64,000 bases of DNA from Escherichia coli (GTDB lineage Bacteria > Pseudomonadota > Gammaproteobacteria > Enterobacterales > Enterobacteriaceae), in assembly GCF_965641715.1 (NCBI RefSeq), contig NZ_OZ282453.1, one strand, 5' to 3'. Shown in pieces: positions 15,026-16,733 of the stretch; position 1 is the stretch's first letter; each line of letters opens with the position of its first letter. The translations under genes and the position numbers were made by a program. The notes beneath the pieces are model-generated. The model was not told the origin of the DNA. It did no database searches and was given only the letters and a program-made list of their open reading frames with translations.

Positions 15026-15080
15026 AGAAAAGCCCCGAGTGATATTTTACCATCAACCCGAGGCCCCCTATATGCTGAAC
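15026..15080 (-). ncRNA. sokC: SokC antisense RNA of the hokC type I toxin-antitoxin locus (approximate)
   Basis: Inferred from hok/sok architecture: antisense transcript overlapping the mokC start; placement copied from K-12 relative coordinates as I recall them, not read from promoter signals. Confidence 0.3.
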
Positions 15081-15281
15081 ACATGTAGAGTGCCTCTTAC
15101 TGACCGTAAGGTCAAGGAGAAGAGAGCAATGAAGCAGCATAAGGCGATGATTGTCGCCCTGATCGTCATCTGTATCACCGCCGTAGTGGCGGCGCTGGTA
15201 ACGAGAAAAGACCTCTGTGAGGTTCACATCCGAACTGGCCAGACGGAGGTTGCTGTTTTCGCGGCTTACGAATCCGAGTAA
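15072..15281 (+). CDS. mokC: MokC, overlapping regulatory reading frame of hokC
   Basis: 69-codon frame MLNTCRVPLTDRKVKEKRAMKQHKAMIV... that contains hokC in frame. Confidence 0.6.
   Translation: MLNTCRVPLTDRKVKEKRAMKQHKAMIVALIVICITAVVAALVTRKDLCEVHIRTGQTEVAVFAAYESE
15129..15281 (+). CDS. hokC: Hok-family small membrane toxin HokC (Gef)
   Basis: 50 aa MKQHKAMIVALIVICITAVVAALVTRKDLCEVHIRTGQTEVAVFAAYESE, a typical Hok toxin with single TM helix. Confidence 0.85.
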   Translation: MKQHKAMIVALIVICITAVVAALVTRKDLCEVHIRTGQTEVAVFAAYESE

Positions 15282-15303
15282 GAGCAACGGCGGGGAGTGA
15301 TCC

Positions 15304-16642
15304 CATAAGCGCTAACTTAAGGGTTGAACCATCTGAAGAATGCGACGCCTCGGTGCCTCGTTAAGACGATGCCTCGCGTTCTTCAATTGCGTTTTGTAGG
15401 CTGTCAGGGATACTGTCCCACGAATGGCCACCTGTAAGCTCCAGATGACCATTTTTGTTATTCTCCACAACGAGTTAGTTCTTCTTTTCGGATCCGGCAC
15501 TTCTGGGGGGGAAATCCAGCGATGGCTGGATTATGTCGTCAATTAAAAATGCGGCGAGTAGATTAGCAAATATCCACGCTTTCGCGAGTTCAGGTTCCTT
15601 TGCACGCAAAGCATCCAGGTGCAGCAAACTTTTGAGCCGCTTAAAAGCCAGTTCAATTTGCCATCGCAGACGGTAACAATCAGCCACTTGCTCTGCTGAA
15701 TATTCATCTTCCGGTAATGATGTTAGCAATAGCACATGGCCCGCTGCTTCCAGCGTTTCCGCCTGAACTACTCGTCCTTTTCGACGATTCTCGCTGAGCA
15801 GTCGGGTTTTACTGATTAATGCTTTTTCGGGAGGAAGTGATACGGCAATGAGACGTGCCGGAAAGGGAGCTCCGGCTTTTTTATTACCTGAATTGCCTAT
15901 CATTACAGTGGCTTCACCGTTCTTACCGCAATCCAGCCCGCGCAGAAAACCCATCATGTCAAAGCGCATTCCTTCTGCAGTTAACCAGCGCAATCCTCGC
16001 CAGTGAACCCGGACGATATAATCAGCTTCTCCAAAAGCAAGTGAGCGGATACATTCGGGACGCGAACCGAATCCCCGGTCAGCAATGCGTATCTCGTCTG
16101 CCGTTTGCGCAAATCGGTCCAGCCGTTCAGCGTCTCTGCTGTCGGTTAGCTCAAAATCAGTGAACTGACAGGTATGAGGATCATATCCCATATGTAGTCG
16201 CCATTCAGCGCTGCCGCCCCCGGGCGCACTGATTGCTGTTCCATCGACAAGACGCAATCTCTTTCCGCTTGTACAACCCGTAACTGCGGCGCGTACAGCA
16301 AGTGTTTGTGCGGCAAGTATGCCAAACCAGTCGGCGGCATTCCGCAGCCGCTTCAGGAGAGCCACGTCAGATAATGTTGCAACGTCATGGAGCTGAGCCC
16401 ATGCAGTGACTTCACGTAATGACATCCCCCCGGGGCCGTAAGCCAGCCCCAGACGTAGCAGAGTTGCAGCATCACGAATTTCGCGGCGGCGGGTTAGAGC
16501 CCCGGCATTACGTGCCGAAGTATCCAGTTCTTCGGGCTTACCAATATGGGCCAGAATTGCTGACCAGTTATCGTGAGAGTAATTCATCGGCACGTTAAAT
16601 CATATCAGGCGTAATACCACAACCCTTAAGTTAGCGCTTATG
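15304..16642 (-). mobile_element. IS186 insertion sequence (IS4 family), complete
   Basis: Perfect 23-bp terminal inverted repeats cataagcgctaacttaagggttg (15304-15326 and 16620-16642, reverse complement); flanked by 10-bp direct repeat ggagtgatcc (15294-15303 and 16643-16652) = target-site duplication; single transposase ORF. Confidence 0.92.
15475..16593 (-). CDS. insL: IS186 transposase (DDE, IS4 family)
   Basis: 372 aa ORF (M)PMNYSHDNWSAILAHIGKPEELDTSARNAG...; lies between the IS186 terminal inverted repeats; the true start may be 2 codons in. Confidence 0.9.
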   Translation of the reverse strand: MPMNYSHDNWSAILAHIGKPEELDTSARNAGALTRRREIRDAATLLRLGLAYGPGGMSLREVTAWAQLHDVATLSDVALLKRLRNAADWFGILAAQTLAVRAAVTGCTSGKRLRLVDGTAISAPGGGSAEWRLHMGYDPHTCQFTDFELTDSRDAERLDRFAQTADEIRIADRGFGSRPECIRSLAFGEADYIVRVHWRGLRWLTAEGMRFDMMGFLRGLDCGKNGEATVMIGNSGNKKAGAPFPARLIAVSLPPEKALISKTRLLSENRRKGRVVQAETLEAAGHVLLLTSLPEDEYSAEQVADCYRLRWQIELAFKRLKSLLHLDALRAKEPELAKAWIFANLLAAFLIDDIIQPSLDFPPRSAGSEKKN

Positions 16643-16733
16643 GGAGTGATCCCCGCCACTTTACAGGTGCTCGCATATCTTCAACGCACCCTATTTTTAC
16701 CCAGGCCTGCCCACGGGCAGGCTTTTGGGGAGG

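Follow-up and report, generated by a model that had tools for sequence, protein, structure and literature searches.

IS186 within the 3' hairpin of the hokC/mokC/sokC locus of a natural Escherichia coli: a recurrent insertion expected to silence the toxin

What becomes of a chromosomal toxin gene when an insertion sequence lands immediately behind its intact reading frame, and must an insertion that matches that of E. coli K-12 be the K-12 insertion? Both questions are raised by the hokC locus in a 64-kb stretch of E. coli DNA (hereafter the window), in which a complete IS186 begins 22 nt past the hokC stop codon (15282–15303). A sequence-only reading had described a 50-aa hokC with an overlapping mokC, both intact, followed after 22 bp by IS186 in the known K-12 configuration. 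We found both frames open and counted the same spacing, and in an alignment with MG1655 the two junctions and the target-site duplication are identical, and the IS copies show a single mismatch over 1339 nt. The window itself is not K-12, a candidate identity ruled out by approximately 60 SNPs relative to MG1655 in 4.6 kb and by a best complete genome with at most 99.8% identity over the locus. The earlier reading was silent on the non-K-12 nature of the window and on an insertion probably not simply inherited along with that of K-12. We are fairly confident of the explanation as a whole, in which IS186 has entered the hokC hairpin at a recurrent hot spot, the locus is silenced, and the copy in the window is recent in its lineage.

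The mokC product is HokC with an N-terminal extension, the translations showing a reading frame common to both. HokC is identical to K-12 HokC at 49 of 50 residues, the change being T44A (G at 15261), and exactly this protein is present in 27 public E. coli contigs; the exact mokC sequence is also found in public E. coli records. MokC/HokC matches the full Pfam model PF01848 HOK_GEF (1–42) with E = 2.7e-23, and the RefSeq name for a CDS of identical length is Hok/MokC toxin. The window HokC scores below the cut-offs of two NCBIfam Hok models, NF007279 (46.7 bits vs 73) and NF007290 (HokA; 35.8 vs 89), and is evidently outside the coverage of these subfamily models. The mRNA leader, which holds the SokC target region, matches the full Rfam model RF01794 (1–157) with a score of 119.5 bits (gathering score 59; E = 4.9e-28). 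It contains, along with the tac element, ucb (~15030–15036), the mok Shine-Dalgarno sequence GAGG (15060–15063) and dcb (~15093–15096), with pairings taken from MFE folds. The sokC position was transferred from MG1655 b4413 (16952–17010) over an alignment without indels, and the gene differs from that of K-12 by a single SNP, at 15066. A TATAAT hexamer precedes the predicted 5' end of the hokC mRNA by 7 nt; we infer a possible role for it as the hokC -10, and no further than that because a consensus promoter scan made no call there, the canonical hokC promoter going uncalled and no convincing -35 being seen. An intrinsic-terminator hairpin, 8 nt from the stop codon of dnaJ on the opposite strand, is presumably the natural 3' end of the full-length hokC mRNA, judging from its sequence and fold. 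With nhaA and dnaJ as its neighbours, the locus is a chromosomal hokC/mokC/sokC type I toxin-antitoxin system of a natural, non-K-12 E. coli with every part present (Table 1).

Table 1. Elements of the hokC/mokC/sokC locus and its IS186 copy, in window coordinates.
Feature	Position	Strand	Details
Putative -10-like hexamer TATAAT	14967–14972	+	7 nt upstream of predicted hokC mRNA 5' end; read from sequence
hokC mRNA 5' leader, SokC antisense target region	14979–15131	+	Rfam RF01794 'sok'
tac (translational activator), mRNA 5' end	14979–14990	+	GGGUGCUUGAGG
sokC antisense antitoxin RNA gene	15022–15080	-	transferred from MG1655 b4413
mokC	15072–15281	+	69 aa; ATG 15072, stop in common with hokC
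hokC (gef) toxin ORF	15129–15281	+	50 aa; ATG 15129, TAA 15279–15281
Split hairpin, left part	15289–15303	+	GGCGGGGAGTGATCC; includes left duplication copy 15294–15303
IS186, complete	15304–16642	-	1339 bp; 1338/1339 identical to MG1655 IS186A
IS186 transposase	15475–16587	-	370 aa from ATG 16587 (372 aa from GTG 16593)
Terminator-like hairpin and T-run within IS186	15857–15886	+ (hokC-sense)	consensus scan only
Split hairpin, right part	16643–16657	+	GGAGTGATCCCCGCC; includes right duplication copy 16643–16652
fbi (fold-back inhibition)	16679–16691	+	CUUCAACGCACCC; pairs with tac in reconstructed mRNA
Predicted intrinsic-terminator hairpin GCCUGCC-CACG-GGCAGGC and UUUU	16705–16726	+	sequence and MFE fold

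The IS186 copy is complete. Its terminal inverted repeats, CATAAGCGCTAACTTAAGGGTTG, are perfect over exactly 23 nt (15304–15326 and 16620–16642), as had been claimed, and they are the only two matches to this sequence in the 64-kb window, while 100 shuffles gave 0. The transposase ORF was inspected for a frameshift and is open throughout; its product differs from K-12 InsL1 at one residue (T226A, C at 15912), scores above the NCBIfam NF033592 (IS4 family transposase) cut-off at 133.2 bits vs 115, and occurs exactly in 31 public contigs. RefSeq labels the element 'IS4-like element IS421 family'. The transposase is transcribed toward hokC, antisense to any hokC read-through, and a terminator-like hairpin within the element, in the hokC sense, is a possible end point for such read-through.

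The duplicated sequence GGAGTGATCC adjoins both ends of the element, as first described, and the exact direct repeat is in fact 12 nt long (GGGAGTGATCCC, 15293–15304 and 16642–16653). The C and G at the very tips of the IS can be assigned just as well to the duplication, which may thus be counted as 10, 11 or 12 bp with an IS of 1339, 1338 or 1337 bp, respectively. Genomes with an empty site hold a single copy of the duplicated sequence, and the window with the IS excised aligns with strain PT62 in one ungapped alignment (952/952 nt at 99.9%). The duplication is therefore real and not a chance repeat, and the collinearity with empty-site genomes indicates that no adjacent deletion took place, in agreement with the original description of a simple insertion. 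On this sequence evidence the insertion is a simple one, with 10–12 bp duplicated and 0 deleted.

IS186 has entered a G/C hairpin with a perfect 8-bp stem, GGCGGGGA-GTGA-TCCCCGCC, of the form G4N6C4 (GGGG-N6-CCCC), which starts 8 nt past the hokC stop codon and folds at -17.0 kcal/mol in the empty site. The left remnant retains only a 4-bp local stem, and its best fold with IS bases reaches -8.7 kcal/mol. The duplication GGAGTGATCC (up to 12 nt) sits inside the G-run/N6/C-run target GGGGAGTGATCCCC, a consensus for IS186 that we take from the title of SaiSree 2001, as cited elsewhere, and from the lon promoter sequence. Sites of the form G4N3-7C4 number 1 in the window (the hokC hairpin) vs 4.6 +/- 2.5 in shuffles, a depletion that is not significant (8.5% of shuffles have <=1). 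A natural allele of the hairpin, GGCGGGGAGTGATTCCCGCC, is a variant with a broken G4 or C4 run. The splitting of this conserved G4N6C4 hairpin, its recurrence in both orientations and its counterpart at hokE had gone unremarked in the sequence-only reading.

That reading had also held that the insertion removes the 3' end of the hok mRNA needed for processing. We rebuilt the uninterrupted 3' fold-back element, and the lowest-energy fold of the resulting 401-nt mRNA (MFE, -168.5 kcal/mol) pairs tac with fbi in a duplex of 12 base pairs with one bulge. In the window, fbi and the terminator hairpin lie 3' of IS186, 1349 bp further from tac; the fold supports the claim in silico, with both elements displaced rather than removed. 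In the MFE fold of a 3'-truncated transcript, tac/ucb and SD/dcb pairings replace tac-fbi, as reported for R1 hok upon loss of its 3' end (PMC9841398), and the same switch is seen in a model of the interrupted transcript that extends 200 nt beyond the stop codon. The literature places the end of the K-12 gef mRNA approximately 200 nt past the stop codon. In a longer interrupted transcript, extending to 15886, the MFE fold lacks tac/ucb and tac pairs locally. By RNAduplex, chance complements to tac in the 1.3 kb of the IS pair with it as stably as fbi does (-18.8 kcal/mol vs -18.3 kcal/mol for fbi); because they match fbi in strength, a fortuitous substitute closure of tac is conceivable and may occur in long read-through transcripts.

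With fbi and the terminator 1349 bp away, a nascent hokC mRNA would be unable to form the tac-fbi closure, by which full-length hok mRNA is kept inert and stable. The split hairpin is also the predicted 3'-terminal stem-loop of the ~335-nt processed mRNA, where it would have a protective role; its R1 hok counterpart, the last stem-loop of the processed mRNA, protects against 3' exonucleases (PMC9841398). Interrupted transcripts would be expected to fold immediately into the open form (tac/ucb, SD/dcb) and to be bound by SokC, and the SokC duplex would then be cut by RNase III. If so, there would be no stable reservoir of toxin mRNA, and the locus would be silenced while its toxin ORF stays intact. 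We infer from this that IS186 inactivates hokC, as the sequence-only reading had said it is thought to do. The literature agrees: PMC7232551 cites Pedersen & Gerdes 1999 for the inactivation of K-12 hok loci by IS elements, PMC3562002 says the same of the IS-bearing hokC, and IS186 is described as disrupting the hokC fbi.

One alternative, which we judge rather unlikely, is that the insertion makes no difference to hokC function, or even relieves its repression. In that case hokC would be unable to kill whether or not the IS is present, its fbi-less mRNA would be translatable and held in check by SokC, and occupancy of the site would reflect mutational input at a harmless position and not selection for silencing. 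HokC overexpression is reported to be toxic. The IS-free hokC of ECOR24 showed neither post-segregational killing nor activation by rifampicin; since this IS-free locus also failed to kill, the IS may silence a locus that is already quiet. The K-12 gef/hokC with IS186 is reported to be transcribed and antisense-regulated still, and the open conformation predicted for the interrupted transcript to 200 nt past the stop codon would suit this alternative as well. A costly hot spot for IS186 at lon is disrupted in ~1% of genomes vs 29% at hokC, and tolerance fits these figures as well as benefit does. Against this, function in R1 hok has been shown to be lost along with the protective 3' stem-loop, and inactivation is the standard reading in the literature.

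How common the arrangement is was assessed in 5426 complete E. coli genomes, in which the hokC site carries IS186 in the window orientation in 668, carries it inverted in 906 and is empty in 3792. The site is thus occupied in 1574/5426 genomes (~29%), or ~23% once an estimated 400 laboratory K-12 derivatives are discounted, a rough extrapolation from an evenly spaced sample that assigns ~400 of the 668 same-orientation genomes to such derivatives. Each of the 13 occupied loci sampled has an identical duplication and a 1339-bp IS, and all 7 inverted loci that were read have the same duplication as the window. The hokC hairpin is a recurrent target of IS186 across E. coli, in either orientation.

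The copy in the window is most likely a lineage-recent event at this target-specific hot spot and not co-inherited with the K-12 copy. The rare T44A form of HokC is also encoded on a public contig (L021) whose site is empty and whose flank, over 6.2 kb, departs from the window by a single SNP; with so nearly identical a contig lacking the IS, the difference between the window and its nearest relative must be a recent insertion or a precise excision, and precise excision of IS186 is documented at lon. A second contig (L024) has the IS together with a SNP otherwise found in the empty L021, and occupancy therefore does not track that SNP. On a tree of the flanks the three states are interspersed, with a Fitch minimum of 10 changes in 21 taxa that is no better than random labels, the tree being short, open to recombination and built from taxa sampled non-randomly.

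These data also bear on identity by descent, under which a single old insertion shared with K-12 was passed down by inheritance, or carried between strains through homologous recombination, and the empty relatives arose by precise excision. We consider this improbable. In its favour, the sampled same-orientation genomes all agree in junctions, duplication and IS sequence, excision of the required kind is known at the lon site, and L024 combines the IS with the SNP of the empty L021; a sequence-specific target, however, yields identical junctions in independent events as well. Moreover, the 906 inverted genomes require at least 2 events or an inversion, the states are scattered over flank haplotypes, and the hairpin at hokE was struck independently. 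The copies of IS186 compared are 0–3 SNPs apart, the SNP of the window being private, and IS-internal SNPs among these copies give no signal that separates in-situ inversion from re-insertion. Very unlikely, in our estimate, is that both orientations come from inversion of a resident IS186 by recombination between its inverted repeats and not from separate insertions: both orientations do have the same duplication, the IS copies are near-identical regardless of orientation and an extended inverted repeat that includes the palindromic target is present (15289–15326 / 16620–16657, 38 nt at 89%), but 23-bp repeats are at the lower limit of length for homologous recombination, a symmetric staggered cut in a palindromic target would give the same duplication either way without any inversion, and the SNPs within the IS are uninformative in either direction.

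The hokC-IS186 arrangement itself was already known, and the recurrent polymorphism at this hot spot adds modestly to it. The lesion is not peculiar to K-12 but is a common, orientation-polymorphic state, in this case one that has been gained or lost very recently within the lineage of the window, and IS186 strikes exactly the hairpin from which the processed toxin mRNA is expected to gain its stability. For annotation, the locus is best read as a hokC/mokC/sokC module in which the toxin ORF is intact and the mRNA 3' end interrupted, and not as a functional or a deleted system, and counting 'functional' chromosomal hok loci by protein ORF alone would lead to an overestimate. One could go further and propose that the 3' stem-loops of the hok mRNAs (hokC, hokE) are a preferred, possibly reversible landing pad for IS186, with insertions either way round and precise excisions turning the toxin loci off and on among lineages otherwise nearly identical, as a switch at the population level or a 'safe harbour' for the IS kept up by selection, and not a one-off lesion of laboratory strains; we regard this as speculative and doubtful. 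Whatever the case, the empty, forward and inverted states at hokC and hokE are natural, isogenic-like contrasts with which the role of chromosomal hok genes could be examined.

Among known systems, the closest is that of K-12 MG1655 (hokC b4412, mokC b0018, sokC b4413, insL1 b0016), which has the same nhaA/dnaJ neighbours and in which the insertion of IS186A 22 nt past the hokC stop, its duplication, orientation and junctions match those of the window base for base. The two are distinguished by the ~60 SNPs in the 4.6-kb flank, HokC T44A and transposase T226A, and the insertion in the window is probably another historical event than that of K-12 because its nearest relatives include empty-site strains. 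The paralogous K-12 locus hokE, between ybdK and entD, has IS186B 21 nt past the hok stop; the target there is the homologous G4N6C4 hairpin GCGGGGAGTAATCCCCGC, and 10 bp (GGAGTAATCC) are duplicated. The transposase of IS186B is co-directional with hokE, opposite to the orientation relative to hok in the window. Some genomes in a non-contiguous class at hokE break at query position 560 and not at the duplication. A toxin of the Hok/Gef type, a leader ORF (mok) and an antisense RNA (Sok) are common to the window locus and hok/sok of plasmid R1, the reference for the mRNA folding model; the tac-fbi closure of the full-length mRNA, the switch to tac/ucb and SD/dcb pairings and the terminal stem-loop on the processed form are predicted for hokC. 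Unlike in R1 hok/sok, the window locus lies on the chromosome, mokC and hokC share a reading frame, and the IS parts fbi from the body of the mRNA. At the lon promoter of E. coli B the same element uses a G-run/6 nt/C-run target, GGGGGAAACATCCCC, where recurrent insertion together with precise excision has been reported; that site is disrupted in ~55/5424 complete genomes vs the 1574/5426 occupied at hokC, and natural populations evidently tolerate an insertion behind hokC.

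The toxin gene behind which IS186 lies belongs to the hok/sok family, as seen from its Pfam HOK_GEF match (2.7e-23) and from the Rfam match to its leader, which starts 7 nt downstream of a TATAAT hexamer. Against the Hok subfamily models of NCBIfam, HokC stays under the curated cut-offs (46.7 versus 73 bits). Both hokC and mokC are open, as claimed in an earlier reading of the sequence only. HokC differs from the K-12 protein, whose allele is that of most genomes sampled, by T44A (G, not A, at window 15261 in the MG1655 alignment), and 27 public E. coli contigs encode the identical 50-aa protein. 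The edited A of the UUACGAA motif (15266-15272), which holds the Tyr47 codon and is intact, lies 7 nt downstream of this SNP. In the RefSeq PGAP annotation of the comparison genomes (L002-L020), the 153-nt hokC CDS is named "mokC: type I toxin-antitoxin system toxin MokC", and the 69-aa mokC ORF and sokC are left unannotated.

Features of the window at and around hokC, with other Rfam matches
Feature	Position	Strand	Details
tac	14979-14990
hok leader and Sok target	14979-15131		Rfam, 119.5 bits; leading bases GGGUGCUUGAGG
mok SD	15060-15063
mokC	ATG 15072 to hokC stop	+	69 aa; same frame as hokC
hokC	15129-15281	+	ATG 15129, TAA 15279-15281; 50 aa, MKQHKAMIVALIVICITAVVAALVTRKDLCEVHIRTGQTEVAVFAAYESE; ORF listing and direct reading
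Duplication, left copy	15294-15303		GGAGTGATCC; abuts IS186
IS186	15304-16642	transposase on -	1339 bp; perfect terminal inverted repeats, exactly 23 nt, CATAAGCGCTAACTTAAGGGTTG
IS186 transposase ORF	15475-16587	-	370 aa from ATG, uninterrupted
Terminator-like hairpin and T-run	15857-15886	+	inside IS186, antisense to transposase
Duplication, right copy	16643-16652		GGAGTGATCC; abuts IS186
fbi	16679-16691
Terminal terminator hairpin	16705-16726
tpke11	17865-17942		Rfam; between dnaK and dnaJ
thr operon leader	31721-31840	-	Rfam
naRNA4 (REP-type) repeats, four	44907-44985, 58012-58292		Rfam

The interrupting element is a bona fide IS186. Its terminal repeats are the sole two matches to CATAAGCGCTAACTTAAGGGTTG in the window, with none in shuffled sequence, and its transposase scores 133.2 bits against the NCBIfam IS4-family model (curated cut-off 115). 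On re-inspection the inverted and direct repeats were present where the sequence-only reading had placed them, and the transposase carries no frameshift. The element begins 22 nt after the hokC stop. A repeat search found an exact direct repeat of 12 nt around it; since the terminal C and G may belong to either the IS or the duplication, a length of 10, 11 or 12 bp for the latter fits the sequence equally well. This property of IS186 is exactly the one described in the title of a paper by Sengstag et al. (1986), cited in PMC3562002. The sole difference from the MG1655 copy is C instead of T at window 15912 (IS position 609), which gives T226A in the transposase and was seen in none of the other 14 IS186 copies in the comparison; the exact T226A protein is on 31 public contigs. 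The terminator-like hairpin inside the IS could end hokC read-through about 600 nt after the stop codon, whereas PMC3562002 places the end of the K-12 gef mRNA nearer, at about 200 nt.

We retrieved the MG1655 region and aligned it to 13.3-17.9 kb of the window. The 40 bases on either side of IS186 are the same in both genomes, so the configuration is that of K-12, as had been proposed. The window is not itself K-12, which is ruled out by about 60 substitutions across nhaA, the intergenic region and dnaJ, and among the complete E. coli genomes of RefSeq, identity over the 2190-bp locus is at most 99.8%. A query made of both flanks joined, minus the IS and one duplication copy, gave one ungapped alignment in 3792 of 5426 complete genomes (best PT62, 952/952 nt at 99.9%), and all sampled empty loci except one, a C-to-T variant, read GGCGGGGAGTGATCCCCGCC at the insertion point, indicating that the duplication is genuine and that nothing adjacent was lost. 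The flanks without the IS are thus collinear with IS-free strains, bearing out a simple insertion with no adjacent deletion. The K-12 arrangement is on record from studies of gef and hok in 1989-1999 onwards, and the sequence-only description of it is correct. The minus-strand thr operon leader indicates that the window runs, in reverse orientation, across the conventional map origin of E. coli.

Judged from flanking sequence, the copy in the window does not appear to have been simply inherited together with that of K-12. In a neighbour-joining tree of 21 genomes, which is based on about 1.8 kb of flank, short, open to recombination and built on non-random taxa, forward (window and K-12 orientation), inverted and empty states are mixed within near-identical haplotypes. 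One haplotype group holds the window and O169:H41 (forward), PT62 and HB6 (empty) and TUM18780 (inverted), and another GB089 and Res13 (forward), KKa014 (inverted) and MB7671 (empty); by the Fitch count at least 10 state changes are needed, and shuffled labels need no more. Public assemblies with the rare MokC/HokC T44A allele include both empty and IS186-occupied sites, the latter including the contig L024, in the window orientation. The contig L023 also carries the IS in this orientation, with 0 differences from the window in the left flank. Since contig L021 (GCA_013072045.1) is empty and nearly identical to the window (1 SNP across 3232 nt of left flank, none across 2978 nt of right flank), and states are mixed, what separates the state of the window from that of its nearest relative is either an insertion or a precise excision, of very recent date; precise excision of IS186 is documented at lon.

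Four transcripts were folded, and all structures are predictions. In the uninterrupted reconstruction (401 nt, -168.5 kcal/mol), tac pairs with fbi (12 bp, one bulge) and the mok SD with ucb, and the G/C hairpin and terminal terminator hairpin fold independently. When the transcript is cut just past the hairpin (337 nt modelled), or interrupted as in the window and ended 200 nt past the stop, tac pairs with ucb and the mok SD with a downstream box; when the interrupted transcript ends at 15886, tac pairs locally (nt 20-30 of the leader) and the mok SD again with a downstream box. The truncated transcript pairs exactly as in the closed-to-open switch reported for R1 hok (PMC9841398). According to that paper, mutations weakening the terminal stem-loop of the processed hok mRNA abolish toxicity by giving 3' exonucleases access, and in the folding model the counterpart of that stem-loop in hokC is the hairpin split by IS186. 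The left remnant of this hairpin forms only a 4-bp local stem, and its best fold uses IS bases (-8.7 kcal/mol). Chance tac complements are present within IS186.

Taken together, the predicted folds and the split stem-loop suggest that the insertion would abolish both the inert, stable full-length form of hokC mRNA and its protected processed form, and that the remaining transcripts would be immediate SokC targets. The folds of the rebuilt IS-free transcript support the proposed loss of a 3' end needed for processing, and the prediction agrees with published statements that IS186 disrupts fbi (PMC3562002) and that IS elements inactivate the hok loci of K-12 (PMC7232551), papers which likewise match the wording that the toxin is thought to be inactivated. 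Alternatively, the IS may be neutral at a locus that was already quiet, since the K-12 gef mRNA is reported to end inside the IS and to retain antisense RNA regulation (PMC3562002), and the IS-free hokC of ECOR24 showed neither post-segregational killing nor rifampicin activation.

In the predicted fold, the empty site forms a perfect hairpin (8-bp stem GGCGGGGA/TCCCCGCC, GTGA loop, -17.0 kcal/mol) of the form GGGG-N6-CCCC. With the IS excised, it is the sole G4-N3-7-C4 site in the window. IS186 occupies it in the window orientation in 668 complete genomes and, as found with the IS reverse-complemented in silico, inverted in 906; where the empty site is not contiguous (1634 genomes), the break is located at the duplication. 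In all 13 occupied loci inspected (6 forward, 7 inverted) the IS is 1339 bp long and the duplication is the same. B2-type strains have an ompK-sulfatase island beside hokC instead of nhaA; in EC19 and CFT073 such a block lies directly upstream of hokC, and EC19 also has an inverted IS186 at the hairpin. Strain 127 is doubly disrupted, with an inverted IS186 downstream and IS150 (19-1412 of the retrieved locus) within sokC and the hokC 5' leader (near window 15053, homology resuming at 15054); IS150/IS3-family transposases adjoin hokC in two further search matches (H22 and H69). The empty site of PRO_A-1374-6M-A_ESBL has a C-to-T change in the C-run (GGCGGGGAGTGATTCCCGCC, equivalent to 15289-15303 / 16653-16657), which interrupts the CCCC run and makes the stem weaker; this allele might be a poorer IS186 target.

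In the literature searched, a single paper names both IS186 and hokC, and IS186 is absent from a 2025-26 survey of Hok diversity. The population picture, with occupancy of about 29%, both orientations and polymorphism within near-identical lineages, may therefore be newly laid out, as an extension of known IS186 target specificity of modest added interest. At K-12 hokE, IS186 lies 21 nt past the stop in a homologous hairpin (GCGGGGAGTAATCCCCGC, duplication GGAGTAATCC), but in the opposite orientation relative to hok; this site is contiguous in 2838 genomes, and many others break precisely at the hokE duplication. [quoted passage not shown] Of 5424 complete genomes, 5369 nevertheless have this lon site contiguous, versus about 70% for the hokC site. 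Insertions after hok genes are thus frequent and tolerated in natural strains, whereas those at lon are rare.
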